39,568 bases of DNA from Chloroflexi bacterium RBG_19FT_COMBO_62_14 (GCA_001797105.1 MGOM01000142.1:55501-95068); one strand, 5' to 3'. Counted from the stretch's first letter, positions 2,533 to 20,949 are shown. Notes: generated by a model not told the origin, from the sequence alone. Program-made: numbers and translations.

Positions 2533-4170
2533 ATGGGTGAATCTACACAGGTGCAAATGACGGAAGGCAACCGGCCCGCGATTTGGACCGGCGCGGCGTT
2601 GGGGGCGCTGACCAGCCTGCCCGTCATGGGGTTAAGCTATCTTGCCGAACGGCTGCTTCAAGTGCCCTTCGTACCTTTCGAGGTCTTCGACTGGTTGGCG
2701 CGGGTGCTGCCCGGACAAATAATCACGACGACCATCGACCTCATGGTGGCGGTGATCCGAGCGCTGCAACTCGGGCCGACGGCCTCAACCGCCAAATTGG
2801 CCGAGCAAGGACAGGCTATCGGGATATTCCTGGTCACCGGCGCCGTGCTTGGAGCCGTCCTGGCGGTCTACGCTCGTGGTTCCAAGAGCCCGGTCGGGCT
2901 GGGTTTGACAGGCGGCGCGGTGCTCTTGCTGGCGATGATCCCGGTTGAGTTGACGCTCGGGTTCCCCCAGGCCGGACCCGTTACGACCCTGATCTGGCTT
3001 GCGATTCTGTTCGGCGCATGGGGTGTGGTCCTTGTCTGGCTGACCGTCAGGGCCAGGGCTGCACTCCTCCAGGAACCGGAGGCTTCGCTCTCACGTCGAC
3101 AATTCCTGTACCTTGTCGGAGGCGGCACGATCGTAGTGACCGTCGGATCGGCCGGGTTGGCGTCGCTGCTGGAGACAGGGGAGGTGGAGGTGCAGGGGCC
3201 GCCGGCCACCCTTGCACCTAGCCTGGCTGGCACCACCGGACCGGCCTCGTCACCGCCGGATGATGTACTGGCCCAGCGGATCGCGCCGGCGCCGGGAACA
3301 CGGCCTGAGCTCACGTCGAACGAGGATTTCTACCGGATCGACATTAACACGCGACCGCCGGAGGTAGACGGAGCCGGCTGGCACCTGCAAGTGGACGGCA
3401 TGGTGGAACAGCCGCTTTCGCTGACGGTGGACGATCTCCGTGCGTTCCCCGCCGTCAGCCAGGTGATCACGTTGGAATGCATCTCGAACCCGGTGGGCGG
3501 GGACCTGATCAGCACCAGTCGCTGGACCGGGGCTCGACTGTCGGATGTGCTCCAACGGGCGGGAATGCTCCCTACAGCCGTCGAAGCTTACGTGACCGCC
3601 GCCGACGGGTTCTATGAAAGTATCGCGATGTCCGATATCACGGATCCACGGACGCTTCTGGTGTACGACATGAACGGGGAACCTCTGTCTTCGGAGCACG
3701 GATTCCCGCTCAGAGTCTACATCCCCAACCGTCATGGGATGAAGCAACCCAAATGGATCGAGCGAATCGAGATCATCGATCGGCGAGGTCCCGGCTACTG
3801 GGTTGATCGAGGCTGGGATGCTGAGGCGATCGTGCACACGACGTCCGTCGTTGATGCGGCCGACAAGGCGGAGGCTGAAGCAAGCAGCCCCACGGTCCCG
3901 GTTGGCGGGATTGCCTATGCTGGGGCACGCGAGATCAGCAAAGTCGAAGTGCAAATCGATGACGGACCCTGGGTCGAGGCGGAGTTGCGAGTGCCTACCT
4001 TGAGCCCGCTGAGTTGGGTCCAGTGGCGTTATGACTGGCCTTACACGAGCGGCCGTCATACGATCAGTGTCCGCGCCTATGATGGGAAAGGCGACTTGCA
4101 GGTAGTCGAACGGCGACCCCCGAGCCCGAGTGGTGCGACCGGAATCGACAGTTTGATTGTTGATCTGTGA
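2533..4170 (+). CDS. Molybdopterin-dependent oxidoreductase (sulfite oxidase/MsrP-YedY family) fused to an N-terminal polytopic membrane domain
   Basis: Moco-domain motifs ITLECISNPVGG (Cys ligand context), LLVYDMNGEPLSSEHGFPLRVYIPNRHGMKQPKWIERIEI, plus a C-terminal Ig-like segment. The N-terminal ~185 aa are hydrophobic helices. Confidence 0.85.
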   Translation: MGESTQVQMTEGNRPAIWTGAALGALTSLPVMGLSYLAERLLQVPFVPFEVFDWLARVLPGQIITTTIDLMVAVIRALQLGPTASTAKLAEQGQAIGIFLVTGAVLGAVLAVYARGSKSPVGLGLTGGAVLLLAMIPVELTLGFPQAGPVTTLIWLAILFGAWGVVLVWLTVRARAALLQEPEASLSRRQFLYLVGGGTIVVTVGSAGLASLLETGEVEVQGPPATLAPSLAGTTGPASSPPDDVLAQRIAPAPGTRPELTSNEDFYRIDINTRPPEVDGAGWHLQVDGMVEQPLSLTVDDLRAFPAVSQVITLECISNPVGGDLISTSRWTGARLSDVLQRAGMLPTAVEAYVTAADGFYESIAMSDITDPRTLLVYDMNGEPLSSEHGFPLRVYIPNRHGMKQPKWIERIEIIDRRGPGYWVDRGWDAEAIVHTTSVVDAADKAEAEASSPTVPVGGIAYAGAREISKVEVQIDDGPWVEAELRVPTLSPLSWVQWRYDWPYTSGRHTISVRAYDGKGDLQVVERRPPSPSGATGIDSLIVDL

Positions 4171-4216
4171 TCGAGGTCGATGAGGAGACAGAGGGTGAGG
4201 GGGAGGTTGCCGTCAT

Positions 4217-4238
4217 CCCCCACCCCTACCCCTCCCCC
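4217..4238 (-). other. Canonical G-quadruplex-forming motif GGGGGAGGGGTAGGGGTGGGGG, 3' of herA
   Basis: Plus strand reads CCCCCACCCCTACCCCTCCCCC. That gives four G-runs of 4-5 with 1-2 nt loops on the minus strand. Partly complementary to the G-rich 4193-4204 segment. Confidence 0.5.
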
Positions 4239-4296
4239 GACACCCTGCTTTGGCTTTACTCTCGTCTCGTGCGGTCGGGATCTACGGCGGTGGGCG

Positions 4297-5970
4297 TCAG
4301 TCCCCGAACAACGTCTCGGCACCGCGTTTGGCTCGAGCCTTGCGCTCCTCGCCATCCACGACCCCTATGGCGCTGTAGAAAGACTGATCGTAGTCGCGCG
4401 TGCGAACGACCACGGGCATGGGGACGGCATGGCCCATGATGAGCGCCTGCTGGCGTGTGTCGAGCCGGGCGAGCACTTCGCGCAGCGCGCCCGCCCCGCT
4501 GACGCCGGAGAAAACCGCCCGGATGTCGGCTTCATTGTCGAGCAGACACGTCACTCGAGTTCCGATCTGGCTCATGACCTCGTCATCGATCCCGCTCGGG
4601 CGCTGATCGACGATGAGCAAAGTGACGTTGTACTTGCGCAGCTCGCGGGCGATGTTCCCGAAGATCGTGTGGCCGGCGATTTGAGGATCGAGGAACTTGT
4701 GCGCCTCCTCGATGACGATCATCAGCGGCCGGGGTTCATCGGCCTGTCCGCCGGCGTGACGGTTCATTCGGTCGACATAGCGAGCGTGGATGCGCCGCGT
4801 CAGATAGTTGGCCACCAGCACGTAGGCCGCCAGTGTGTTGCCGTATCGGCCGAATTCCAGGACGATGCTCGTTCCGAGATTCAGTCGATTGAAGATATCA
4901 TCGACGGCCTCATCGCCCTTACCAGGGACAAGGAAACCCATTCGGCGGAAGAACGATTCGAACTTGCGCTGGATCGCGTCCAGCGTTCCGGGCAGGATCC
5001 GGCCGCTTAGCACCAACTCCTGAAGTTCTTCCCCCGCTTGCTCTTCTTCCAGCAGTTTGGCGATCCAGGCCGGGCCCAGCCTGCGTCGCAGGTAGTAAAG
5101 AGCCCCGGTCTGGATGTCGCTCAGCCCCATCAAGCCGGCGAGCATCTCCACATCCTCCGGCTCTATCTGCTCGTAGCCGATCTTGAGGATACGGTCGATC
5201 TTGCTACCGCGCGCTCGCGAGGTCTCCTCATCCAGCGTGACCACGTTCACTCGCCCGTCGGGGAAGAGCTGCCGCAAGCCTTTGTACTGGTGCTGACCCT
5301 CCCCCTTGACCGCCCAGCCGTAGTCGTTATGCATATCGAAGACCAGGCTTGAGGCCAATCCGGACTTGACGATGCCGGCCAAGATGGTGCGGGTGATGAA
5401 GGACTTCCCGGTGCCGCTCTTGCCGAAGACACCCGAGGAGCGCGCAACGAAACGGCCCAGGTCGAGATTTACCTGGACGAGCTCCATGTCGAGAGGCGAG
5501 CCGATGAAGAAGTGGCTCTGATCTTCACGGCCGAAGACCCGCTCGACATCCGCTGCAGTCGCTTCGTGCACGCGGCTGAAGTGGGCCGGGATCGTCTTGA
5601 TCGGGCGCGGTTCTTGGGCACCCTCATCCAGCACGAGCATCGGGGTCACCTGCATCGCCCCATAGGCGACGCTGCCACGGTAAACCTCGGCGCTAAAACT
5701 ATCGGAGGGGTCCGGGGGCCTTCGGGGAAGGTCGGGATTGGCGGCGTCCAGGAGGATGTCGGTGATGATGCCGAAGAACGTCCGTCGGCTCTGACCTTGG
5801 ATAACCACGTAGCGGCCGACGGCGAGGCGTTCGATAGACAGATGGGGGTCGAGCTTGACCCTCAAGCCGGCGGAAAGGGATCCGCCGACGACGGTCCCCA
5901 GAGGTGTCTCGCCCTGGCGTTCGCCGAAGTAGGAGTCGAGATCCGAGGCATCGGTCATCCGGCCCTCCAA
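4297..5970 (-). CDS. herA: HerA-like FtsK/HerA-superfamily ATPase (HAS-barrel + DUF87-type P-loop)
   Basis: N-terminal barrel-like LGTVVGGSLSAGLRVKLD...VGRYVVIQGQSRRTFFGIITDI. Walker A GKSGTGKS. Walker B LMIVIEEAHKFL. Also LLIVDQRPSGID. Confidence 0.85.
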   Translation of the reverse strand: MEGRMTDASDLDSYFGERQGETPLGTVVGGSLSAGLRVKLDPHLSIERLAVGRYVVIQGQSRRTFFGIITDILLDAANPDLPRRPPDPSDSFSAEVYRGSVAYGAMQVTPMLVLDEGAQEPRPIKTIPAHFSRVHEATAADVERVFGREDQSHFFIGSPLDMELVQVNLDLGRFVARSSGVFGKSGTGKSFITRTILAGIVKSGLASSLVFDMHNDYGWAVKGEGQHQYKGLRQLFPDGRVNVVTLDEETSRARGSKIDRILKIGYEQIEPEDVEMLAGLMGLSDIQTGALYYLRRRLGPAWIAKLLEEEQAGEELQELVLSGRILPGTLDAIQRKFESFFRRMGFLVPGKGDEAVDDIFNRLNLGTSIVLEFGRYGNTLAAYVLVANYLTRRIHARYVDRMNRHAGGQADEPRPLMIVIEEAHKFLDPQIAGHTIFGNIARELRKYNVTLLIVDQRPSGIDDEVMSQIGTRVTCLLDNEADIRAVFSGVSGAGALREVLARLDTRQQALIMGHAVPMPVVVRTRDYDQSFYSAIGVVDGEERKARAKRGAETLFGD

Positions 5971-6004
5971 TGCGCGGCGAAGCGCGTCCCGTCCCGGTCT
6001 TTGA

Positions 6005-6601
6005 TCATGTCTGCAGACTGCGGATGAGGTTCTCGAGGCGGTTGAGGTCGGCCGCCATGAAGCGGGCGCATTCCCGTCCGGCTTGGACCAGGTAGGGAAG
6101 GCGCTGTTTTTCGGGATAGGTCAGTGAGGCCTGCTTGAGGGCCGCCGCCAGCAAGTCGTCGACCGGAAGTCGGTCGGCGCCGAAGATCAGAGGCAGGAAG
6201 TCGAAGCGCTCGGTGAAGGAGTGGACCTCGTTCACGTCGAGGGGGTAGACCTCCGCCAGCGTGAGAGGAGGCTGTGGCGGAAGCGTGTAGTGATAGGTCC
6301 CTTCCCGAGCAAAGCCGACAGTTAGCGCACTAAATTCGAGCGGTACCTGCCGATTCGTCTGGGCATCGGCAAGCTGTTCGCGCGAGAGGTCTCCCGCACT
6401 TGCCATCTGCCGGGCGAGCTCGTCATCCTCGATGCTCAGATCGTAGATCAAGCCGATCACCCGGGCCTGCCCGTGTTGTGTCTCAACCACGCAGAACCCA
6501 CCGAATGCAGGAATGTCGGGCTCAGGCAAGCGGACGGCCCCGACGAAGCCGCGCGTGCTGCAGCGCGTGACCCTCCCAATAGGCACCTGGGTGACGACCA
6601 T
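6005..6601 (-). CDS. Hypothetical 198-aa protein, N-terminal HAS-barrel-like fold, no ATPase motifs
   Basis: PIGRVTRCSTRGFVGAVRL...FGGFCVVETQHGQARVIGLIYDLSIEDD parallels the HerA N-terminal barrel pattern. Sits between nurA (16-nt gap) and herA (34-nt gap). Confidence 0.6.
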   Translation of the reverse strand: MVVTQVPIGRVTRCSTRGFVGAVRLPEPDIPAFGGFCVVETQHGQARVIGLIYDLSIEDDELARQMASAGDLSREQLADAQTNRQVPLEFSALTVGFAREGTYHYTLPPQPPLTLAEVYPLDVNEVHSFTERFDFLPLIFGADRLPVDDLLAAALKQASLTYPEKQRLPYLVQAGRECARFMAADLNRLENLIRSLQT

Positions 6602-6617
6602 GCTTTATCTCACTCCT

Positions 6618-7799
6618 CTAGACGCGATGGCGCCGGCGCGCTCCGGTCCAGCGTTTAGTCTGTGCTTTCTGCGAGATTCGAGGCCGAAGGCCGCGGCGGA
6701 TGAGAGATTGCTCGATCATAGCCTCGAAGGCCTGCCTGTCGGCGGCGGTGACAACAGCCAGCTCATGGGCGCGGACGAGCGGATAGGGGAAACCTCCGGT
6801 GGTCTTAGACTGTTCAATGATCCCGGCGTGCACCCACTCCAGCCTCTTCGGGTCTTCGGCCACCCAACCGGGGATCTCGACGCGAGCGATGTTGTGCGCG
6901 CCTCCCGTGTTGAGATAGAAGAACTGGATCTGGTGCCCGACGGTCTCGAAGTCGCGATTCACCGGAGAACTATCCACAAAGCGCGCGCTGCGCTGGCCGG
7001 GCTCGAGGCGTTCGGCAAAGAGGGCGCGATCGGTGAGGCCCCGGTAAGGGCTGATGGCTGGTGAGGACTCCGGGTCTGGTTCGGGCGCCAGAACCAGGGC
7101 CAAGAGTGCCAGGACATCCGCGCTGCGCGGCCGATCGACCAAGCCGGCGACCGCAACCCCGCTCGCTCGAAGTCGGGTGAGATGCTGTAAGTACTCGGCC
7201 AGCAATCGGTCGACGGCCTTTCGATGCTGATCACCTGCCTGCAGGGCGAGCCAAAGAAGCAGGCCGTTGTCCAGGAGCGCCAATGTTGGCGCACCGCTGC
7301 AGCTCTCGGCCAGACGCGCCAGCGTCTCCATCTCGGCCACATCGCGCTTGCCATTGATCCAGGCCGGCGAGGCCAGGTCCCCGCTATCTCCGTAGAGGTC
7401 GGCGTCGTCATAGAACACGCCGGCCTCACTGGCCGTGCGTGGTGCGCTGCCCGTACCCTGTTCGATCAGGATGGATCCGATGTTGATCAAGAAATACAGC
7501 GCGGGTGCGTGCCGGTCGGGGAGGATCTGCGAACCGTCCGCTCCGATGACGTTGAGACGAGAGGGATGGGGGGGAAGGCCGAAAACCACATTGACGGGCT
7601 CATCCGTCGGATGTGCCCCCCGCCAACGCTCCCCGGCTCGCCGGATGCGGTTGGTCAGCTCGTCCCGGCCGATGCGCTGGGCCTCATCGATCGAGCGCAG
7701 GGCCACCGGGAGTTTGCGCGCGGCTTCGGCTGCCCGCCGGGCCGCGCTCTCTCCCAGGCCTTCAATCTGCGTCAACAGCTGAGGAAATCGGAGGCTCAT
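6618..7799 (-). CDS. nurA: NurA-domain nuclease-like protein
   Basis: Motifs in the order expected for NurA: VIGADGSQI, RDVAEMETL, LALLDNGLL, GFPYPLVRAHELAVV. Confidence 0.75.
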   Translation of the reverse strand: MSLRFPQLLTQIEGLGESAARRAAEAARKLPVALRSIDEAQRIGRDELTNRIRRAGERWRGAHPTDEPVNVVFGLPPHPSRLNVIGADGSQILPDRHAPALYFLINIGSILIEQGTGSAPRTASEAGVFYDDADLYGDSGDLASPAWINGKRDVAEMETLARLAESCSGAPTLALLDNGLLLWLALQAGDQHRKAVDRLLAEYLQHLTRLRASGVAVAGLVDRPRSADVLALLALVLAPEPDPESSPAISPYRGLTDRALFAERLEPGQRSARFVDSSPVNRDFETVGHQIQFFYLNTGGAHNIARVEIPGWVAEDPKRLEWVHAGIIEQSKTTGGFPYPLVRAHELAVVTAADRQAFEAMIEQSLIRRGLRPRISQKAQTKRWTGARRRHRV

Positions 7800-7828
7800 T
7801 GCCAGACTTGATCGAACACCTGTTCCGG

Positions 7829-7857
7829 ATTATATCCGAAGCAATCGAGTCTGCAAA
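7829..7857 (-). promoter_or_regulatory. Sigma70-like promoter for nurA-X-herA (-35 TTTGCA, 17-bp spacer, -10 TATAAT)
   Basis: Minus strand: TTTGCA (7857-7852), 17 nt, TATAAT (7834-7829). About 23-30 nt upstream of ATG 7799. Confidence 0.5.
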
Positions 7858-8020
7858 TTCGCGGCTCGCGGGTGCGGCTCCTTGAGATGAGCGCGGATAC
7901 CACCCCTTATATCGCTCCGACTGTCGGACGTTCACTCGCGAGACCGGCGCGTGACAGATGCCCCAAGTTCCATCCGATCAGCCCGGAAGTCACGCTGATA
8001 TGGCCGGTCTAAGGTGGTTG

Positions 8021-8029
8021 TGCTATACT
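8021..8029 (+). promoter_or_regulatory. Extended -10 element TGcTATACT, 7 nt upstream of ATG 8037
   Basis: Reads TGcTATACT-gcgcgaa-ATG. The -35 (TGGCCG) is weak. No Shine-Dalgarno motif fits in the 7-nt gap. Confidence 0.4.
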
Positions 8030-8036
8030 GCGCGAA

Positions 8037-8288
8037 ATGACCAGAATGCATGATCTGACCGAAGATTTGGCCCGGAAGTTGCGCCGGACCGGCATGGGTG
8101 GCGTTGCAGCAGTCCTCTTGGAGGTGGCAGGACCATTGGCCCTGATCGGTGCACAGGTGGCATACATCGTGGAACCTCTCTTCGGAGGAGAGGAGCTGCA
8201 TAGCATCGGTCGTGTGTTGGAGGATCCTAAGAAGGTTCGCCTCCTGATCGACCAACTGCGAACTGACTTGGCGGACAACGATGTTTGA
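8037..8288 (+). CDS. Small hypothetical protein (83 aa) with one hydrophobic segment
   Basis: First ORF after the promoter. Its stop overlaps the next ATG (8281) by 8 nt. An alternative ATG lies at 8046. Confidence 0.55.
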   Translation: MTRMHDLTEDLARKLRRTGMGGVAAVLLEVAGPLALIGAQVAYIVEPLFGGEELHSIGRVLEDPKKVRLLIDQLRTDLADNDV

Positions 8289-9024
8289 TCTCAGGGGTCT
8301 GCTGATCCTGGCGATCTTCCTTGCAACGCTTCTGGCTTACGCCGCGTACGGGCGTCGGAGGACGACCGTCTTTCGCAAGCTGCGCGGCTTCGAAGAACTC
8401 GGCAGATCCATCGAGCGCGCCGTTGAGGCCGGCGAGCGCGTACATCTTTCTCTAGGGACCGGATCGGTGATCGGCTCTGACAGTGGTCCGGCGCTCGCTG
8501 GATTGGCCGTGCTTTCGCGGATGGCGATGGCGACCAGCATGAGCGATAAGCCATCGGTGATCACGGCCGGGGACGGCGCCATGATGGTACTGTCGCAGGA
8601 TAGCTTGCGGACGGGGTATCAGCAGGTCGGAGAATCAACCCGCTTCCAGTTGACAGCCGGAAGAATGCTGGGTCCGACACCCTTCTCCTACGTCGCCGGT
8701 CTTCCCGCCGTTCTCGGTGGCGAGGACGTGACGGTCCACGTGATGATCGGATCGTTTGGGGCGGAAGCTGCGCTGGCGGCGGACTTTGGTGAGAGAAAGG
8801 GAATATTTGTCCTGGCCGGGACAGACGACGTTCAGGCGCAGGCACTCCTGTATGCCATCGCCTCCTATCCTCTTATCGGAGAAGAGGTGTTTGCCGGCGG
8901 TGCATACCTGAACGCGGGCCCGCTGCATCATGCCAGCCTGAGCACACAAGACCTGGTGCGGTTCCTTATCGTCGCCGCGATCCTGGTCGGGACACTGATG
9001 CGCACCTTTGGGGTCGGCCTGTGA
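8281..9024 (+). CDS. Hypothetical protein with N- and C-terminal TM anchors flanking a ~190-aa globular domain
   Basis: TM segments LLILAIFLATLLAYAAY and FLIVAAILVGTLM. Translationally coupled on both sides. No family recognised. Confidence 0.75.
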   Translation: MFDLRGLLILAIFLATLLAYAAYGRRRTTVFRKLRGFEELGRSIERAVEAGERVHLSLGTGSVIGSDSGPALAGLAVLSRMAMATSMSDKPSVITAGDGAMMVLSQDSLRTGYQQVGESTRFQLTAGRMLGPTPFSYVAGLPAVLGGEDVTVHVMIGSFGAEAALAADFGERKGIFVLAGTDDVQAQALLYAIASYPLIGEEVFAGGAYLNAGPLHHASLSTQDLVRFLIVAAILVGTLMRTFGVGL

Positions 9025-9665
9025 AGCTGGGTGCGTATATGATCTGGGCCGCCGTCGCGGTCGCAGCCGGCGCGATCGTCCTCCTCGGCTACTTCACCAA
9101 CCTCGACGTCATCATCGGGCTGCGGCTGGTCTGGCTGGTCTTGCTTCGTTGGGCGATCCTGCTTGCTGCCGGGGGACTGGGAATCGGTCTGGTGAATCTG
9201 GCGAGTGTCCACCTGGCCAAGGTCAGCGAGCAGGAGCCCGGCTGGCCGTATAGCGGCGTCCTGATCGTTTTCTTCACCTTCACCCTGGCCCTCGGGCTGT
9301 TCTTCGGCCCGGACAGCCCATGGACGCTGTTCGTCTTCAGATTCATCCACCTGCCCCTCGAATCAAGTCTCATGGCCCTCCTGGCGGTCGCCCTGGTTGT
9401 TGCCGGCGTACGCCTGGCCGGCCGGCGACGAGATCTCCTCAGTCTCGTGTTCGTGTTGACCGCCATCCTGATATTGCTGGGGACCGGGCCGTGGCTCATC
9501 GGTTCCGAAAGCGTGACCCATGAGAGGATCTTATGGGTCAGGAACTGGGTAGTCCAGGTGGCGGCGGCCGGAGGGGCAAGGGGCATCCTCCTCGGCGTGG
9601 CAATCGGTGGGATTGTCACCGGCTTGCGGGTGCTTGTGGCCGCCGACCGGCCTTACGGGAACTAG
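9021..9665 (+). CDS. Polytopic membrane protein (about 6 TM), uncharacterised
   Basis: GTGA start/stop overlap with the upstream gene. Hydrophobic throughout. Confidence 0.75.
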   Translation: MKLGAYMIWAAVAVAAGAIVLLGYFTNLDVIIGLRLVWLVLLRWAILLAAGGLGIGLVNLASVHLAKVSEQEPGWPYSGVLIVFFTFTLALGLFFGPDSPWTLFVFRFIHLPLESSLMALLAVALVVAGVRLAGRRRDLLSLVFVLTAILILLGTGPWLIGSESVTHERILWVRNWVVQVAAAGGARGILLGVAIGGIVTGLRVLVAADRPYGN

Positions 9666-9669
9666 CGGA

Positions 9670-12249
9670 ATGGCTGCCGAACTCCGTTGTCCGATGTGCA
9701 GCAAACTCAACCCTCCCGGCGCAGAGGAATGTGGGTTTTGCGGAGCTCGGCTGCGGCCTCTGGTCGTCGGAGGCGAACCGGAAGGCTCTCGCATATCGGC
9801 GGACGGGACGGATGATGGCGCAGAGGCCTCGGACTGGCTCGACAGGATGAGGGCAGGATCGGGAGCGGACGAATTCGAAGAGAATGCCCCAGAGGATGAG
9901 GCAGACTCGGCCGGCTCTCCGGACTGGCTGGGCCGCTTGCGAGAAGTGGGACCGTCGGAAGAAGGGCCACCCCCGGGTGAGGTCCCGGACTGGTTGGGCA
10001 CGCCGAAGGAGACAACGGCGGAGGCTCCGGGGGAAGAGACCGGTGGGGCCGAACTGGCAGAGGTCCCTGATTGGCTATCGCGTGTACGCGACAGGCAGGC
10101 CCAGGAAGCCGAACCGGCCTGGGGTGCAGAGCCGGAAGACGGGGGCGCGGAGGGGCAGGAGGACTGGCTCGCCCGAATACGAGATGGGGGGATACCAGCC
10201 AACGCCGGACCAGCGCTCCCTCCGCTGACACCTGACTCCGCCGTGGAAGCCCCGACACCTGGAGGGCGACCCTCGCCTGACTGGATAGAGAGGGGCGAGC
10301 GCCTCGGGGCCGGTGACTCCATTGAGCCGGTGGAAGACTCAGGCTTGGCCTGGGACATTCAATCCGGCACAGACCTGGGCTGGTTAGAAGAGGTCGCCCC
10401 CGCAGAAGGATCGGATCTCGCCCAAGCCGGCCCCGCCGCGCCGCCTCGGGAGGGGTGGCTGGCCGAGCTCGAAACACCGTCTGACGAGTTGCCCGAAGGC
10501 ACGGGCGAAGAAGCGAAGGGTGTGGAGCCTGCGGCTTCCTGGCTGGGCAACGCAGAGATCGCCGTCGAAAGGCCGTTTACAGGAGAAGACGAGGAGATCA
10601 TCCGACCGGAGACGGGCGAAGCGGATTGGCTCAAAGAGCTCGAGGTTGGAGCCGACGAGCCCTCATCCTGGGAGGACCGAGGCCAACGCAAGATCTGGGA
10701 AACTGCAGGAGAAGGCGGGCTGGGCTGGCTGGCCGAATACGATGCCTCGGTCGGAAAGAAGCCCGACGAAGCGGGGGAGCCGACCCCGGAGGGTGAACAG
10801 CTTGAGCCGGGATGGCTCTCAGAGATCAGGGCCCCGGATCAGGTCCTCCCAAGCGAGCCCGAAGCAGTCGTGCCCGCCAAATGGGAAGAGGCGGCCCAGC
10901 CTGAGCGCACGCCCGCAGGCGAGCTGCCCCACGTGGCGGCGCTGGTCTTTGGGGCACAGGAGCCGGGCGGAGGGGCGCAAACCCCAGACATCGATCTGAG
11001 CTCGCTTGAGGTCGAGTTGCCTGATTGGCTCGGTGAGCACAAAGCCGCCCCCGCAGGAGGGGAGCCGGCTGGCCCCGGCGGGGTCGATCTTGCACCGGCG
11101 ACACTCCCGGCGTGGCTCGAAGCGATGCGGCCGATCGCCACATTCCGATCGGTTGTCGAGGTTGCCGAGGAAGAAGAACAGGCCCTCGAATCGGCAGGCC
11201 CGCTGGCTGGGCTGCGCGGGGTCCTGATGGCCGAGCCAGTGGTAGCCATGCCGCGCGCGCCGACGATCGGCGCCGCCAAGCTGGAGGTTACCGAACGGCA
11301 GTACGCCCAGGCCGAGCTCTTGCACAAGATGGTCGAGGAGGAGGAGCGCGAGCTCCCATCAGCCGACAGACGCCGTTTGCGTCTGCCGCTGGTTCGCTGG
11401 GCCGTGTCCGCCGTCCTCCTCATGGCTGTCATCCTGCCGATCACGCTCGGGATCCCTTCCTTTCCTCTTCCTTCCCAGGTATCACGCGATCTTAAGCCGC
11501 TGATGGCATTGGTCAATGGATTGCCGGTTGATCGACCGTCGCTTGTCGTGTTCGATTACGATCCCGGATATTCGGGTGAGATGAACGCTGTGGCTGGAGC
11601 GTTCATCGATCAACTCATGGGAAGAGGGGTCCCGGTTGTCAGTCTCTCGACGCGCCCTTACGGGCCGGCGCTCGCCGCGGGTCTCCTGGACCGAATCGCT
11701 TCAGGACGCGGCGTCCCTGCTGGGACCGGTTATCTGCATCTCGGATATCTCTCGGGTGGGCCGACCGCTGTGCAGATCTTTGCCGCTGCGCCGCAAGATG
11801 CAGTTCGGCAAGGCTTTGATCTGCCCGCGGATGCCGAAGGTCAAGCGGTGTGTGGGGGCTGGGATTGCCCCATTCTCTCGAACGTGCACAGGCTCTCCGA
11901 CTTCAGCATGGTCGCTGTGCTCTCGAGCGGTACCGAAAACGCTCGCACGTGGGCCGAGCAGGCTCACCCCTATTTGGGCCAGGTCCCTCTGGTGATGGTC
12001 TTGAGTGCCGGCGCGGAACCGCTCATCCGGCCGTACTACGAGGCGCTCGAGCCGCAGGTGAACGGTATCCTCTCGGGTCTGCCCGCGGCGGTGGCCTATG
12101 AGCAGGCCAATCAACTCCCCGGGGAGGCGCACGCACGCTGGAATCCATTCGGGGCTGCCCTGATGGCGATCGAATTCATGTTGGCTGCAGGCGTCGTCTA
12201 TGCCCTTGCGAGACGGCTCTTGAGATCGGGCCGGGCGCAGCGTGGGTGA
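9670..12249 (+). CDS. 859-aa zinc-ribbon protein: CxxC-x12-CxxC N-terminus, ~500-aa acidic region with 14 'DWL' motifs, TM, ~270-aa domain, C-terminal TM
   Basis: CPMCSKLNPPGAEECGFCG at 9688-9741. ATG 9670 is 4 nt after the upstream stop; the track ORF start at 9607 overlaps the previous gene. TM segments VRWAVSAVLLMAVILPITLGI and ALMAIEFMLAAGVVYAL. Confidence 0.85.
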   Translation: MAAELRCPMCSKLNPPGAEECGFCGARLRPLVVGGEPEGSRISADGTDDGAEASDWLDRMRAGSGADEFEENAPEDEADSAGSPDWLGRLREVGPSEEGPPPGEVPDWLGTPKETTAEAPGEETGGAELAEVPDWLSRVRDRQAQEAEPAWGAEPEDGGAEGQEDWLARIRDGGIPANAGPALPPLTPDSAVEAPTPGGRPSPDWIERGERLGAGDSIEPVEDSGLAWDIQSGTDLGWLEEVAPAEGSDLAQAGPAAPPREGWLAELETPSDELPEGTGEEAKGVEPAASWLGNAEIAVERPFTGEDEEIIRPETGEADWLKELEVGADEPSSWEDRGQRKIWETAGEGGLGWLAEYDASVGKKPDEAGEPTPEGEQLEPGWLSEIRAPDQVLPSEPEAVVPAKWEEAAQPERTPAGELPHVAALVFGAQEPGGGAQTPDIDLSSLEVELPDWLGEHKAAPAGGEPAGPGGVDLAPATLPAWLEAMRPIATFRSVVEVAEEEEQALESAGPLAGLRGVLMAEPVVAMPRAPTIGAAKLEVTERQYAQAELLHKMVEEEERELPSADRRRLRLPLVRWAVSAVLLMAVILPITLGIPSFPLPSQVSRDLKPLMALVNGLPVDRPSLVVFDYDPGYSGEMNAVAGAFIDQLMGRGVPVVSLSTRPYGPALAAGLLDRIASGRGVPAGTGYLHLGYLSGGPTAVQIFAAAPQDAVRQGFDLPADAEGQAVCGGWDCPILSNVHRLSDFSMVAVLSSGTENARTWAEQAHPYLGQVPLVMVLSAGAEPLIRPYYEALEPQVNGILSGLPAAVAYEQANQLPGEAHARWNPFGAALMAIEFMLAAGVVYALARRLLRSGRAQRG
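9829..11124 (+). repeat. Protein-level repeat region: 14 copies of x-[DGSA]-W-[LI]-x-x-[hydrophobic or R] in an acidic, Pro/Gly-rich background
   Basis: SDWLDRM, PDWLGRL, PDWLGTP, PDWLSRV, EDWLARI, PDWIERG, LGWLEEV, EGWLAEL, ASWLGNA, ADWLKEL, LGWLAEY, PGWLSEI, PDWLGEH, PAWLEAM. Confidence 0.8.
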
Positions 12250-12962
12250 TTCGGATGCTTGAGCAAGTCGTCGGCCCCGTCCTGGCGTCTCTTCTGACGA
12301 TCATGATGCTCAGCTACATCATTGGCGACAACGCCTTCTTCCGCTTGGCATGTTTCATTTTTGTCGGAGTGGCCTCCGGTTATGCCGGCGCTATCGCCTG
12401 GCACCATGTGCTCTGGCCGGGACTGGGCGAACCGTTCGTGCAGAACGGGGTGTCAACCCTCACAGACCCCGCGTTGATTGTCACGGTAGTTGTTCCCCTG
12501 GTCTTGATTGGGCTGATGCTGTTCAAGCTCTCGGCCGCGACTGCGCCTTACGGAACCTTGCCGTTGGCCCTGATGGTCGGTATAGGGGCGGGGGTTCTCG
12601 TCGGCGGGGCGATCACCGGAACGCTCATCCCACAGTCTATGGCGGCAATGACCACCCTCGACCCACGCGCGGTCGCGCCGCAAACGGGAGAGACCGGCCT
12701 GGAGCGAGTCATCAATGTCATTATCCTCCTGGCCGGGACGTTGTCGACCTTGATGTACTTTCGCTTCACTGCCACTCGTTCCGCCAGCGGTGAAACCCGC
12801 CGGACCAGGCTCATGAGGATCGTCGCCAGTGGGGGCGGATTCTTCATTGCGCTCACATTCGGAGTCATGTACGCTGGGGCGTTAGCGGCGGCGGTAATTG
12901 TCCTGGCCGAACGGGTCCAATTCCTGGCCGAGGTGGTTGTGAACATGCTAGGCAGACTGTGA
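12246..12962 (+). CDS. Polytopic membrane protein, uncharacterised
   Basis: GTGA overlap with the upstream stop; an alternative ATG lies at 12255. Gly/Ala-rich TM helices (LMVGIGAGVLVGGAITG). Confidence 0.75.
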   Translation: MIRMLEQVVGPVLASLLTIMMLSYIIGDNAFFRLACFIFVGVASGYAGAIAWHHVLWPGLGEPFVQNGVSTLTDPALIVTVVVPLVLIGLMLFKLSAATAPYGTLPLALMVGIGAGVLVGGAITGTLIPQSMAAMTTLDPRAVAPQTGETGLERVINVIILLAGTLSTLMYFRFTATRSASGETRRTRLMRIVASGGGFFIALTFGVMYAGALAAAVIVLAERVQFLAEVVVNMLGRL

Positions 12963-12972
12963 CGGCGGTAGG

Positions 12973-14733
12973 ATGAGCACGATCGTCGATGCCGACACTC
13001 TGCTCGCCATCGATGTCGGGAGCGTGAACACGCGCGCCTCGCTGTTCGATGTCGTCGACGGCCGGTATCGTTTCGTAGCGACAGGGCGTTCTGCATCGAC
13101 GGCCGATTACCCCGTCGCCGATATCGGCGAGGGGATTCGGCTGGCACTCGAGCGGGTCCAGGGCGTCACTGGGCGGCGGCTGATCGACGAATCCGATTCG
13201 TTGATCGTCCCGGCGAGTGCCGACGGCTCGGGGACGGATGTTTTCGTCGCCACCGCCTCGGCCGGACCAAGCCTGCGCACCATCATGGTGGGGCTAATGC
13301 CGGGTGTTTCGATTGAGAGTGCACGGCGGCTGGCGACGGGTACCTATCTGAATGTGCTCGATGAGATCGGCCTGACGGATCGTCGGCGCGAAGAGGAACA
13401 GATCGACTTGCTTCTCCGGGCGAAACCCGATCTCATCCTTCTTGTCGGTGGTACGGACGGCGGGGCGAATGAATCGGTCTTGCGCATGGTCGATCTGGTG
13501 GCGGTGGCTGCCAGCCTGTTCCCCGAAGGGGAAGTCCCGCGCGTTGTCTACGCCGGCAACCGACAATTGTCGGCTGCCGTGGCGGATCGGTTGGGAGACC
13601 AGCTCCCACTGGTCTTGACGCCGAATGTACGACCGACGCTTGGAACCGAGGATCTCGCCCCCGCCCGCTTGCGCCTGGCTGAGGTCATCGGTGAGGTGCG
13701 TTCGATGCGCATCTCAGGCTTCGAGGAACTGAGGCAATGGACCGGTGGGAACCTCATGCTTACGGCGGACGCCGTCGGACGCGTTTGTCGCTACCTGAGT
13801 CAAGTATACGATCCGGAGAAGGGAGTGATGGGTGTCGACCTCGGCGCCAGTCACACGACGGTGGCCGCCGCCTTCGCCGGGGACCTCAGGCTGACGGTGT
13901 GCTCCGACTTGGGCCTCGGTGCAGCCCTCCCTGGCCTGCTCCGGCATAGCTCATTAGAGAAGGTAACCCGTTGGCTGCCGATCGACATTCCGGATGAGTA
14001 CGTTCAGGACTATGTGTACAACAAGGCCCACTATCCCCGGAGTGTGCCGGCCGAAACTGAGGAAATGCACCTCGAATACGCCCTGGCCCGCCAATTGATC
14101 CGTTCGGCATTGTTCCAGGCGAGGGCGGGGTGGCCGCAGGGGAAGGACTCCGAGTCCGTTCTCCTGATGCCTCCACTCGAGCCCATTATCGCCAGCGGAG
14201 GCGCCCTGGCACGCGCCCCTCGCCCAGGCTTGGCCACCCTGGTGCTCTTGGACGCGCTGCAGCCGACCGGGGTTTGCACTCTCATCCTGGATCCTCACAA
14301 CCTTTCGCCGGCGCTTGGTGCGGCCGCCGAACCGCTTCCTCTGGTGGCTGTCCAGGTTCTCGGTTCAGGTGGCTTTGTCAGCCTCGGCACGGTGGTTGCA
14401 CCCATCGGACGGGCGAGACAGGACAGGCCGGTCTTGAAGTTCCGGCTGGACAAGGAAGGAACGGGCGACGTCGTCGAAGACGAGGTCAGGTTCGGCCAGC
14501 TCGTCGTGCTCTCGCTCGGGCAGGGGGAGCATGGTCGGCTGACTTTGCGCCCCGAGCAGGGATTCGACCTCGGTTTCGGTGGCCCGGGAAAGGCCGGCGC
14601 CCTGCGAGTCTCGGGCGGGGCCGTGGGTCTGATCATCGACGCCCGCGGGCGGCCTCTCCAGCTCGCCAGAGATGGCGGACGTAGGCGTGAATTGAACCAG
14701 AAGTGGCTGTGGGACATCGGCGCGCTACACTGA
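12973..14733 (+). CDS. ASKHA (actin/Hsp70/sugar-kinase fold) ATPase, resembling GlmL/MutL glutamate-mutase accessory-type proteins
   Basis: Phosphate-1-like LLAIDVGSVNTRASLFD. LLVGGTDGG. Second-lobe MGVDLGASHTTVAAA. Confidence 0.7.
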   Translation: MSTIVDADTLLAIDVGSVNTRASLFDVVDGRYRFVATGRSASTADYPVADIGEGIRLALERVQGVTGRRLIDESDSLIVPASADGSGTDVFVATASAGPSLRTIMVGLMPGVSIESARRLATGTYLNVLDEIGLTDRRREEEQIDLLLRAKPDLILLVGGTDGGANESVLRMVDLVAVAASLFPEGEVPRVVYAGNRQLSAAVADRLGDQLPLVLTPNVRPTLGTEDLAPARLRLAEVIGEVRSMRISGFEELRQWTGGNLMLTADAVGRVCRYLSQVYDPEKGVMGVDLGASHTTVAAAFAGDLRLTVCSDLGLGAALPGLLRHSSLEKVTRWLPIDIPDEYVQDYVYNKAHYPRSVPAETEEMHLEYALARQLIRSALFQARAGWPQGKDSESVLLMPPLEPIIASGGALARAPRPGLATLVLLDALQPTGVCTLILDPHNLSPALGAAAEPLPLVAVQVLGSGGFVSLGTVVAPIGRARQDRPVLKFRLDKEGTGDVVEDEVRFGQLVVLSLGQGEHGRLTLRPEQGFDLGFGGPGKAGALRVSGGAVGLIIDARGRPLQLARDGGRRRELNQKWLWDIGALH

Positions 14734-14737
14734 TCGC

Positions 14738-15841
14738 TTGGCACTGCTCTTGCAACTCAAGCCAGACATGATAATGGGCTCTGCGTATCTTCCACCCGTA
14801 TCGCATGTTCTCCCGCTGGCGATCATCCGGCGAGAGCGCCGTTTGCCGCTTGCCGGGGCGGTCGCGGTCCGGATCAATCAGAAAGTTATGGCCTCGGATG
14901 TGGTCGCCGAGGGCGAGGCTCCCCCGCGCCACGTATTCCTGGATCTCGCCCGCGGCCTGGGCGTCCCCGTTCACGAGGTGGGCAGGTATCTGCGCTCCCA
15001 GCGAGGCGATGCGCTTGAAGCCGGGGAAGTTCTTGCTGGCCCGGCCGGCATGGGTAGGAGGACTGTTCGAGCCCCCTCAGATGGGATCGTGGTCAGTATC
15101 TCCAACGGCCGGTTGCTCTTTCGGATGCACTCAGGGGTCCTCGAGCTCAAGGCTGGGTTCCCGGCGACGGTCGTCGGGACCGATGGAGTTCAAACCGTCC
15201 TCCTGGAAACGACGGGGGCGTTGATCCAGGGCATGTGGGGGAACGGAAACAACGATTTCGGTGTGATGCGGGTTGTGGGAGACGGACCAGGTGACCGGTT
15301 GCAGACCGATCGCCTGGACGCCGACCTGCGCGGGGCAATTCTTGTCGCCGGCATTTGTGATCATCCGGCACCCTTGCACCAGGCGACCGGGATTTCAGCT
15401 CGCGGGATCGTCCTTGGCGGATTGGCTTCTGAGCTGATCCCGGTGGCGGCCCGCCTGCCGTATCCAGTCATCGTAACGACCGGGTTCGGCCCGCTTCCGC
15501 TGGACAATCCGACCTTCAACCTGCTCAGTAGCAACGCCGGCCGGGAAGTGGCCCTCGATGCCCGCAAGTACAATCCGTCCGACGGATCGCGGCCGGAGGT
15601 GATCATCCCCCTGCCGCCGACCTCTGAGGCGGATTTGCCCGAAGATGTTATTCCCCTGAAGGAGGGTGTGCGCGTTCGGCTGGCCCGTCCTCCTTATCAC
15701 GGGTCTGTCGGGGTTGTGCGGGAGATGCTCGCCCGGGCCGTCGACTATCCGAGCGGGATCCTTGCCCGGAGCGCCAGAGTCGACTTGGATGGGGTTGGCT
15801 TGACGATCGTCCCCGTCGATAATCTGGAGGTTCTGCAATAG
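14738..15841 (+). CDS. Hypothetical protein with an N-terminal barrel-sandwich-hybrid-like segment and a C-terminal KOW-like motif
   Basis: VVAEGEA...RTVRAPSDGIVVSISNGRLLF and LKEGVRVRLARPPYHGSVGVVREM. TTG 14738 is 4 nt after the upstream stop; alternative ATGs at 14768/14774. Confidence 0.65.
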   Translation: MALLLQLKPDMIMGSAYLPPVSHVLPLAIIRRERRLPLAGAVAVRINQKVMASDVVAEGEAPPRHVFLDLARGLGVPVHEVGRYLRSQRGDALEAGEVLAGPAGMGRRTVRAPSDGIVVSISNGRLLFRMHSGVLELKAGFPATVVGTDGVQTVLLETTGALIQGMWGNGNNDFGVMRVVGDGPGDRLQTDRLDADLRGAILVAGICDHPAPLHQATGISARGIVLGGLASELIPVAARLPYPVIVTTGFGPLPLDNPTFNLLSSNAGREVALDARKYNPSDGSRPEVIIPLPPTSEADLPEDVIPLKEGVRVRLARPPYHGSVGVVREMLARAVDYPSGILARSARVDLDGVGLTIVPVDNLEVLQ

Positions 15842-19640: not shown

Positions 19641-19689
19641 AAAATGTTACCGGCGGGGTATGGTTCCCTCATTTGAAAATGTTACCGAG
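19641..19689 (+). repeat. Left terminal inverted repeat with two AAAATGTTACCG sites 35 bp apart
   Basis: Sites at 19641-19652 and 19676-19687. Confidence 0.8.
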
Positions 19690-19695
19690 GGTGCC

Positions 19696-20949
19696 ATGGC
19701 CGCCGATGACCCGATGACCGTCGATGAGCGTCGGAAGTACCTACGGACGATGCAGAAGCGCTACCGGAAGGCCTCCCGCAAGGGGCAAAGCCAGCTGTTG
19801 GACGAGATGGAGGCGGTGACCCATCTACACCGCAAGAGTCTGAGCCGGCTGATGAACGGCGACTTGGCCCGCAAGGCCCGCTCCAGGCAGCGCGGCCGCA
19901 CCTATGGGATCGAGGTCGTTCGAGCCCTCAAGGTCATCGCCGAGAGCTTCGATTACCTGTGTGCCGAACGGCTGCAACCCAACCTGGTGTGGATGGCGGA
20001 CCATCTGGCTGCTCATGGCGAAGTCGAGCTCTCCCCTGGCCTCCTGAGCCAGCTTGGCAAGATCAGCGTTTCCACCGTCCGGCGGATCCTCGAGAAGCTT
20101 GGCCAAGACGAGCCTCGCTTACCCCGCAAAGGACCCCAAGAAGCCAATCGCTATCGTCGCAACGTCCCCGTCCGGCGCATCCCCTGGAACGAAAGCCAGC
20201 CGGGCCACTTCGAGACCGATCTGGTCCATCACTGCGGCATCTCCGCTTCCGGCCAGTACGTCCACACCCTGCAGATGGTCGACGTGGCCACCGGCTGGAG
20301 CGAGCGGGCCGCCACGCTGGGACGCAGCTACCTGGCCATCCAGGACGGCTTTCGACGCATCCTGGCCCGCCTGCCTTTCAAGGTGCTCGAGATCCACCCC
20401 GACAACGACAGCGCCTTCTTCAACGTTCACCTGGCCAAGTTCTGGAAGAACACCGCCAAGGACGTCCAGCACTCCCGCAGCCGGGAGTGGCACAAGAACG
20501 ACAATCGTTTCATTGAGCAAAAGAACTCCACCCTTGTCCGTGCCTACATTGGCCACAACCGTCTCGATACCGTCGACCAAACGGACCTGCTCAACTCGCT
20601 CTACGACAGGCTCTGGCTCTACTACAACCTTTTCCAGCCCGTGATGCGCCTGGAGGAGAAGCTTATCCTGGCCCTGGCGGATGGCCGCCGCCGCGTTCGC
20701 CGCCGCTATGACCGCGCTCGGACCCCCTTCGATCGGCTGTGCGCCACCGACGCCCTCCCCGCCGCCGCCCGTCACCAGCTCGAAGCCCTGCGCTCGGCCA
20801 CCAACCCTCGCAAGCTACGCCAGGAGATCTACGACCTCCTGGAAGCCCATCATCGCCTGCCCTGTGCCGTGGATGGCCAGACGGAGGATGTCTACCTGAC
20901 GTTGTTCGCCCCACCATTCCGCCAAGAGGAGGAGGCCCTGACTCGGTAA
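19696..20949 (+). CDS. DDE transposase (N-terminal HTH + integrase core domain)
   Basis: HFETDLVHH...VDVATGW...EIHPDNDSAFFN...NDNRFIEQKNSTLVR (D, D, E spacing). ATG 19696 is preferred; the track start at 19660 lies inside the inverted repeat. Confidence 0.85.
   Translation: MAADDPMTVDERRKYLRTMQKRYRKASRKGQSQLLDEMEAVTHLHRKSLSRLMNGDLARKARSRQRGRTYGIEVVRALKVIAESFDYLCAERLQPNLVWMADHLAAHGEVELSPGLLSQLGKISVSTVRRILEKLGQDEPRLPRKGPQEANRYRRNVPVRRIPWNESQPGHFETDLVHHCGISASGQYVHTLQMVDVATGWSERAATLGRSYLAIQDGFRRILARLPFKVLEIHPDNDSAFFNVHLAKFWKNTAKDVQHSRSREWHKNDNRFIEQKNSTLVRAYIGHNRLDTVDQTDLLNSLYDRLWLYYNLFQPVMRLEEKLILALADGRRRVRRRYDRARTPFDRLCATDALPAAARHQLEALRSATNPRKLRQEIYDLLEAHHRLPCAVDGQTEDVYLTLFAPPFRQEEEALTR

Follow-up and report, generated by a model that had tools for sequence, protein, structure and literature searches.

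The nurA-mid-herA locus

Within a 39,568-nucleotide (nt) stretch of DNA from Chloroflexi bacterium RBG_19FT_COMBO_62_14 (GCA_001797105.1 MGOM01000142.1:55501-95068), hereafter the window, positions 4297-7857 hold a compact locus encoding a NurA-like nuclease, a small protein that we call Mid and a HerA-type ATPase. A preliminary description, made from the sequence alone, had left this locus between two readings, a DNA-end-resection machine with a new subunit and an uncharacterised defence cassette. The three genes are co-oriented on the minus strand, as stated there, and together with their control elements comprise the following features (coordinates are those of the window):

6618-7799, minus strand: nurA, 393 amino acids (aa)
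6005-6601, minus strand: the middle gene, mid, 198 aa
4297-5958, minus strand: herA, 553 aa from the ATG; with the alternative TTG start, 4297-5970
5963-5968, minus strand: Shine-Dalgarno sequence GGAGGG of herA, seen by reading the sequence; its distance to the ATG at 5958 is 4 nt
7852-7857, minus strand: -35 hexamer TTTGCA from a promoter scan, 10/12 matches, 17-nt spacer to the -10 hexamer
7829-7834, minus strand: -10 hexamer TATAAT from the promoter scan
7814-7825: palindrome GAACAGGTGTTC (GAAC-N4-GTTC), a putative LexA/SOS box placed between the -10 hexamer (3 nt away) and the nurA ATG (14 nt away)

The nurA stop codon and the ATG of mid are separated by 16 nt, and the mid stop codon lies 34 nt from the TTG at 5970, which is the gap reported earlier, or 46 nt from the ATG at 5958. 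On sequence grounds the ATG is the more likely start of herA, because the GGAGGG precedes it at the spacing given above and because the herA orthologues share an MxExSxLD N-terminus that begins at the equivalent position.

The NurA and HerA components

The nurA product matches the Pfam NurA family PF09376 with an E-value of 9.6e-25 and 87.9 bits (cut-off 21), the match spanning positions 2-254 of the 254 in the model, and carries an N-terminal extension of about 82 aa ahead of the Pfam domain. The D-E-D-H nuclease site is intact: of 47 aligned sequences, 44-45 share D88 (in DGS), E156, D177 (in LDNG) and H345 (in RAHE), and the other rows differ there. The earlier recognition of a NurA-like nuclease from its DGS, E, LDNG and YP..L..AH motifs is thus borne out by the Pfam match and by the conservation of these residues in about 44 orthologues. 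Sequence and profile searches of NurA against the PDB matched no chain, and its single-sequence AlphaFold 2 (AF2) model reached a predicted local distance difference test (pLDDT) of only 33. The protein ends in a basic tail, SQKAxTKRWTGxRRRHRL (window 6618-6680), which is conserved within Anaerolineales and is shorter or absent in other lineages.

The herA product is matched by the Pfam models DUF87 (E-value 2.4e-26) and HAS-barrel (3.8e-4; 20.9 bits, below the cut-off of 25.2). The HAS-barrel match rises above the Pfam cut-off in orthologues (35.7 bits in L049; also in L081) and the N-terminus is alignable throughout; HerA retains its own N-terminal HAS barrel. The Walker A motif GKSGTGKS (K185) and the Walker B motif IVIEEAH (E417/E418) are conserved in 40-42 of 44 sequences. 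The protein is accordingly a predicted HerA/FtsK-type hexameric DNA translocase with intact Walker A and B motifs, and the assignment as a HerA-type ATPase with HAS barrel, GKSGTGKS and IVIEEAH stands, given the two Pfam matches and the retention of the motifs in orthologues.

Sequence searches of HerA against the PDB retrieved the anti-phage HerA 8wiv (E-value 8.6e-26) and Sulfolobus HerA 4d2i (1.8e-17), with TdpA a weak match (7e-8), while a profile search gave Sulfolobus 4d2i at 1.5e-24 and Thermococcus kodakarensis 9x1l at 4.1e-21. Among models of annotated families, PADLOC PDLC04105 (7.6e-37), HerA_antiphage (2.6e-24) and the repair-associated HerA_Thermprot (2.9e-23) were all matched. 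The matches to the PADLOC and NCBIfam anti-phage models are generic and partial, lie far below the family cut-offs and are no better than those to repair HerA models.

Mid, a predicted stand-alone HAS-barrel protein

The middle open reading frame (ORF) is a real gene. Its product has 289 homologues in a 90%-clustered database, all of about 198 aa and all from Chloroflexota where the organism is named, and a profile search of a representative library recovered 691 clusters at 50% identity, with 372 falling below 1e-10. Across 44 genomes the protein is 50-85% identical and free of disruption, and an alignment of 20 sequences shows 38 invariant positions, with an LPPQPP motif among them.

An AF2 model built from the same 20-sequence alignment (pLDDT 80.4, predicted template modelling score 0.76) shows an N-terminal beta-barrel (residues ~9-120) and, after it, a C-terminal bundle of five helices (123-197); an acidic helical hairpin (58-85) that is poorly ordered is inserted in the barrel. 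When this model was compared with the PDB using Foldseek, the top 50 matches were all HerA chains (E-values 5e-6 to 9e-4, probability 1.00, 120-166 aligned columns), among them the archaeal HerA-NurA complex 9x1m, Sulfolobus HerA 4d2i, TdpA, SIR2-HerA and DUF4297-HerA, and the matches cover the HerA N-terminal regions only. Mid has neither a P-loop nor an ATPase domain. At the sequence level the window copy reaches the Pfam HAS-barrel model PF09378 only below cut-off (E-value 0.097, 13.2 bits) and a search of PDB sequences with the Mid profile gave nothing meaningful; PF09378 is above threshold in more distant Mid relatives, many of these matches being precomputed (the homologue in L075 scores 25.5 bits), and NCBI labels some homologues 'HAS-barrel domain-containing protein'. 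Thus, the profile searches for the NurA, HAS-barrel and DUF87/HerA families that had been proposed in the preliminary description recognise NurA and HerA, with Mid staying under the HAS-barrel cut-off in its window copy.

Judged by the structural model, Mid duplicates the N-terminal HAS-barrel region of HerA as a separate protein that has a helical tail and lacks the ATPase. Since HerA keeps its own HAS barrel, Mid is an extra copy of the docking domain rather than one half of a split gene. The possibility, raised at the outset, that the middle gene is a spurious ORF is effectively refuted by its homologues, its conservation and its HerA-like fold.

In Anaerolineales the insert in the Mid barrel (residues 56-86, window 6344-6436) is acidic, with a net charge of -4 to -6; set beside the basic tail of NurA, it hints at a contact between the two proteins, though the pairing is only suggestive. 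Three apparent NurA::Mid fusions (P0238, P0257 and P0260) were left out of the evidence, since they look like read-throughs across frameshifts.

Gene linkage and phyletic distribution

A scan of a genome collection seeded on Mid returned 44 Anaerolineales-type loci, and the order nurA-mid-herA is found in all 44 genomes (one locus being truncated at the edge of its contig). Compared with the window proteins, identity across these loci is highest for HerA (66-91%), followed by Mid (49-84%) and NurA (42-78%). In a metagenome scan seeded on a distant Mid subfamily, mid is directly followed by herA in nearly all contigs that reach far enough, the two ORFs overlapping or abutting, and nurA lies upstream in 10. 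Full triplets occur in L078 and L081; the long contigs L049 and L050 encode Mid and HerA with no nurA within about 7 kb. Within Chloroflexales, Herpetosiphonaceae and Chloroflexaceae show a nurA-mid pair with no herA nearby. The placement of the 198-aa ORF between nurA and herA, which the preliminary description had proposed to survey, therefore holds throughout the Anaerolineales set, while elsewhere Mid is found with NurA only, with HerA only, with both or occasionally solitary.

Beyond Chloroflexota the Mid family is found in Chlorobiota, namely in Chloroherpetonaceae and Chlorobiales, including the cultured Chloroherpeton thalassium, and it probably also occurs in Latescibacterota. In Chloroherpeton thalassium (L079 2780-6597, CP001100.1) the order is nurA, an unrelated lipoprotein-like gene, mid. 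The gene between nurA and mid in Chloroherpetonaceae (L079; L075 3571-7570) encodes a TPR-like protein of 682-758 aa with a C-terminal AhpC/redoxin domain, and no herA was found within 6 kb of nurA...mid in these two loci. This intervening gene was considered as a substitute for HerA and rejected, as its product is a TPR/thioredoxin-like lipoprotein with no ATPase motif.

Thus, Mid is linked to NurA alone, to HerA alone and to both together, as would be expected if it worked with each of the two proteins, and this pattern suggests that it is a bridging or accessory subunit.

Three observations made in the course of these surveys are recorded here. A patatin-like phospholipase gene directly follows the Mid-HerA pair in L049 (7220-9626), L050 and L081 (6001-9061); this could be lineage synteny or a pairing with a different effector. 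A solitary Mid homologue in L047 (3755-6421) lies directly downstream of a gene for an AAA_15/SMC_N-type ATPase and a DUF4276 gene, a pair that looks like a nuclease-ATPase module. Anaerolineales-type triplets (Mid identity 49-59%) are also present in metagenome-assembled genomes named Phycisphaera mikurensis (L009), Methanosarcinales archaeon (L026) and Thermoanaerobaculia (L039), and these contigs are probably binning contaminants.

A conserved LexA-type palindrome behind the -10 box

The promoter TTTGCA-17-TATAAT, noted earlier from inspection, was recovered by the scan as the best of three promoter-like sites in positions 3800-8600 (shuffled sequence: 1.0), and its elements are kept in orthologous loci. 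In an alignment (A9) of seven upstream sequences, those of the window and six orthologous loci, the TTGC core of the -35 element and the -10 TATAAT are invariant; the TTGC core is seen in most of 41 upstream regions.

Immediately downstream of this promoter lies the palindrome GAAC-N4-GTTC. Of the 41 Anaerolineales loci with upstream sequence, 36 carry it exactly and three with one mismatch. Its position in these 39 is fixed: the -10 box, a TAnAAT hexamer in every one of them, ends 2-3 nt ahead of it, and the start codon follows after 10-14 nt. An alignment of the region upstream of nurA shows a conserved -35 TTGC, the -10 TATAAT and then CGGAACAGGTGTTCGA, the rest of the intergenic DNA being unalignable. 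Several orthologous loci carry the perfect Cheo-box 14-mer CGAACAGTTGTTCG (full CGAAC-N4-GTTCG), from which the window copy, GGAAC...GTTCG, differs by one mismatch. Positions 7814-7825 are the only exact GAAC-N4-GTTC in the 39.5-kb window, where 0.61 would be expected by chance; as this single occurrence is not significant alone, the case for an operator rests on the phylogenetic footprint. A search for further SOS boxes, both in the window and across the loci, turned up chance-level or intragenic matches only, and neither lexA nor recA was found among the scanned ORFs of the window.

The motif has reportedly been shown to be that of the LexA protein of Dehalococcoides ethenogenes (Chloroflexota). 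It is the LexA motif of Bacillus subtilis and other Gram-positives (Firmicutes) and of Actinobacteria (PMC3323433). The inverted repeat GAAC-N4-GTTC is thus common to the Cheo box, or LexA (DinR) operator, and to the element described here, which overlaps the region of the transcription start after the -10 box. An operator that overlaps the transcription start is the usual arrangement for repression, and on this account we infer that LexA would bind the palindrome and place the operon under SOS control. We know of no report of NurA-HerA as a member of an SOS regulon.

Genomic context

The scanned ORFs of the window encode common chromosomal families, namely a two-component system, a molybdopterin oxidoreductase, UvrC, a phosphoglucomutase (pgm), a homoserine dehydrogenase, transporters and one rve-type integrase. 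The immediate neighbours of the module are the molybdopterin oxidoreductase, the two-component system and a cluster headed by DUF6754, and on both sides the flanking scanned ORFs have ordinary regulatory, metabolic or unassigned Pfam domains. No Mre11, Rad50 or SbcCD domain was detected among the scanned ORFs, in agreement with the earlier remark that mre11 and rad50 are missing from this stretch, and no recognisable defence domain was detected among them either. The divergent cluster headed by the DUF6754 membrane protein lies about 450-650 bp upstream of nurA in 39 of 44 loci, and the herA-distal side varies.

A PADLOC search, also proposed in the preliminary description, yielded generic and partial HerA models only, with no match for NurA or Mid. 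Neither of these two proteins had a match in a plasmid collection or in PHROGs, Mid had none in a viral structure library, and Rfam and tRNA scans of the window found nothing.

Comparison with known HerA-based systems

In Deinococcus radiodurans the HAS barrel of HerA is the docking surface for NurA (PMC9960219). In the mechanism described for the Deinococcus and archaeal complexes, the HerA hexamer pushes duplex DNA through its channel to a NurA dimer seated on the HAS-barrel face (PMC9960219, PMC5448004, PMC12977600). In these papers bacterial nurA-herA is described for Deinococcus-Thermus only, as an abutting or overlapping two-gene tandem (PMC5448004, PMC9960219, PMC12977600), so that the earlier characterisation of the studied bacterial versions as two-gene pairs agrees with the literature (PMC9960219, PMC5448004).

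The nurA-herA (hepA) tandem of Deinococcus radiodurans and Thermus shares with the present locus the order, nurA first and then a HAS-barrel HerA, the lack of mre11/rad50 and an N-terminal extension of NurA. It differs in that nurA and herA abut or overlap there, whereas here a conserved 198-aa gene stands between them in the window and in 44/44 genomes; the host here is a member of Chloroflexota, the operon has a LexA-type operator and similarity of the NurA proteins is low, no PDB chain having been matched. The archaeal HerA-NurA-Mre11-Rad50 operon has the NurA and HerA families in common with this module, and both HerA and the Mid model match archaeal HerAs; here, in contrast, no Mre11 or Rad50 was found in the scanned ORFs, an extra HAS-barrel gene is present and the promoter and operator are of the bacterial sigma-70 type. 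The anti-phage systems SIR2-HerA/Nezha, DUF4297-HerA and TdpAB likewise combine a HerA-type ATPase with an effector docking on the HAS-barrel side, and HerA and the Mid model match their structures. However, the effector here is NurA and not SIR2 or DUF4297, the locus is a syntenic chromosomal one and not a defence island, and the similarity to TdpA is weak. We found no paper describing a stand-alone HAS-barrel partner of NurA-HerA, though the FtsK-HerA comparative genomics of Iyer 2004 might mention solo HAS barrels. The enzymes of this system are known; to our knowledge, no description exists of the third component, of where it occurs in Chloroflexota and Chlorobiota, or of the SOS-type operator.

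Mechanistic interpretation

By its components and gene order the module is a NurA-HerA machine. The combination of the features described above leads to the proposal that the locus encodes a chromosomal, SOS-inducible NurA-HerA end-processing machine of Anaerolineales with Mid as an accessory third subunit, a reading that we hold to be probable, with the assembly of the three proteins and the binding of LexA as its conjectural parts. Under this proposal LexA bound to the palindrome would keep the operon repressed until DNA damage, through RecA-stimulated cleavage of LexA, derepressed it. In the manner of the Deinococcus and archaeal complexes, the HerA hexamer would then translocate duplex DNA to a NurA dimer docked on its HAS-barrel face, and this dimer would resect or degrade the broken ends. 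Mid would join the HerA-NurA interface by means of its own HAS barrel, either to form an adaptor ring or platform between the barrel crown of HerA and NurA or to act in the assembly or gating of the nuclease. Because it copies the domain on which NurA docks, Mid could be an adaptor that stacks on the HerA crown or intercalates with it, a NurA platform where there is no adjacent herA, or a mimic that restrains NurA. A function in DNA damage is favoured over defence because of the stable synteny, the apparently vertical conservation and the LexA-type box. Of the two readings offered in the preliminary description, it is hence the resection machine with a new subunit that gains, from the conservation of Mid, its HerA-like fold, the LexA-type box and the stable synteny, while the defence cassette finds little support, with only generic HerA models from PADLOC, no defence neighbours and no plasmid or phage relatives.

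A stronger version of the proposal, which we advance tentatively and at somewhat short of even chances, is that the free HAS-barrel protein is an obligatory third subunit defining a distinct LexA-controlled class of bacterial NurA-HerA systems that extends from Chloroflexota to Chlorobiota (Chloroherpeton). Here Mid would form the ring or platform coupling the NurA dimer to HerA, and in the lineages with only NurA and Mid it would enable the nuclease to function with no motor next to it.

No end-resection machine is understood less well than NurA-HerA, and whether its physiological role is repair or the destruction of foreign DNA is disputed (PMC12977600). Mid, built from the docking domain of HerA, could account for the coupling or restraint of nuclease and motor in a large and poorly studied phylum, and the conserved LexA-type operator predicts damage-inducible expression and so bears on the question of repair or defence. 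An obligatory Mid would, if true, give NurA-HerA systems their first known accessory subunit, and the SOS link, if true, would be direct genomic evidence for bacterial NurA-HerA acting in DNA-damage repair and not in defence.

Several points weigh against the SOS-inducible machine with an accessory Mid. The Mid family and the HerA N-terminus are only marginally similar in a profile-profile comparison (hhalign E-value 0.005, probability 7%), so that the paralogy of the two rests on the fold match. A Mid homologue is solitary in Roseiflexus and in one other genome, and hence Mid can exist away from both partners. The linkage surveys were seeded on Mid and so cover Mid-bearing loci only. Binding of LexA is read from the motif alone, and outside Anaerolineales the loci examined have no such box ahead of nurA. 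HerA obtains similar scores from anti-phage and from repair HerA models. Finally, a recent archaeal study doubts that HerA-NurA carries out end resection and suggests a role in the degradation of foreign DNA or antiviral activity (PMC12977600).

These last two points bear on the alternative that the module is an anti-phage or foreign-DNA defence cassette, in which, by analogy with SIR2-HerA, DUF4297-HerA and TdpAB, HerA would be the motor or sensor, NurA the effector nuclease and Mid an adaptor. The best matches of HerA do include anti-phage HerAs (PDLC04105, HerA_antiphage, 8wiv), a patatin-like phospholipase gene follows Mid-HerA in L049, L050 and L081, and an antiviral role has been proposed for the archaeal HerA-NurA (PMC12977600). 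The HerA matches, however, are partial, far below the family cut-offs and equalled by repair models (HerA_Thermprot, 4d2i), and NurA and Mid are without a PADLOC match. Unlike mobile defence islands, the module has one and the same divergent cluster beside it in 39 loci spanning an order; it has no plasmid, phage or PHROG relatives and nothing defence-like among the scanned flanking ORFs. The LexA-type operator, too, suits a damage response better, though some defence and prophage genes are also SOS-controlled, and on balance we regard a defence cassette as quite improbable. That the middle ORF is an unrelated passenger, or a spurious ORF inside an ordinary nurA-herA pair, is a far weaker candidate and in our view hardly credible: the window copy does lack a significant Pfam, NCBIfam or PADLOC match and homologues can be solitary, yet the protein is undisrupted at 50-85% identity across 44 genomes and spans 691 clusters at 50% identity, its fold is confident and HerA-like, and it is found linked to NurA and/or HerA time and again, in several classes as well as a second phylum.

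A further alternative, unlikely but the least so of the three, concerns the mode of action of Mid. It could be a HerA mimic that binds NurA through the HAS-barrel surface and either holds the nuclease inactive until displaced by HerA or supports a HerA-independent NurA. Such a role would fit the docking of NurA on the HerA HAS barrel and the near inactivity of Deinococcus NurA alone (PMC9960219, PMC12977600), as well as the NurA-Mid pairs without a nearby herA in Chloroflexaceae, Herpetosiphonaceae and Chloroherpeton; the basic NurA tail and the acidic Mid insert of Anaerolineales would also be in keeping with it. Mid-HerA pairs without a nearby nurA exist too, however (L049, L050), the tightest coupling of Mid in the metagenome contigs is to herA, and the charge complementarity is an impression gained from the sequence.

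Other features of the window

The divergent DUF6754 cluster occupies window positions 8037-15841 on the plus strand and comprises an 83-aa membrane-like ORF, DUF6754 (8281-9024), a 214-aa ORF, an 880-aa protein, a 238-aa ORF, a 367-aa ORF and, at 12973-14733, a MutL-like PF13941 actin-fold ATPase. For the DUF6754, 214-aa and 238-aa genes this placement recurs in 24-39 of 44 Anaerolineales loci, the number varying with gene and coverage filter. The 880-aa protein (9607-12249, plus strand) has no Pfam match; it combines an N-terminal zinc ribbon (CPMC...CGFC) with about a dozen acidic PDWL/GWL..R repeats and a C-terminal hydrophobic/globular part, and its gene probably accounts for the local peak in AT-skew (0.29) and GC content (0.676) at 10-11 kb. 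Farther along, at 19660-20949 on the plus strand, a 429-aa ORF shows a weak match to the rve integrase core (E-value 3.3e-6, below the Pfam cut-off) and coincides with a sharp dip in GC-skew (-0.185 at 20-21 kb); it may be an insertion sequence element or a remnant of one.

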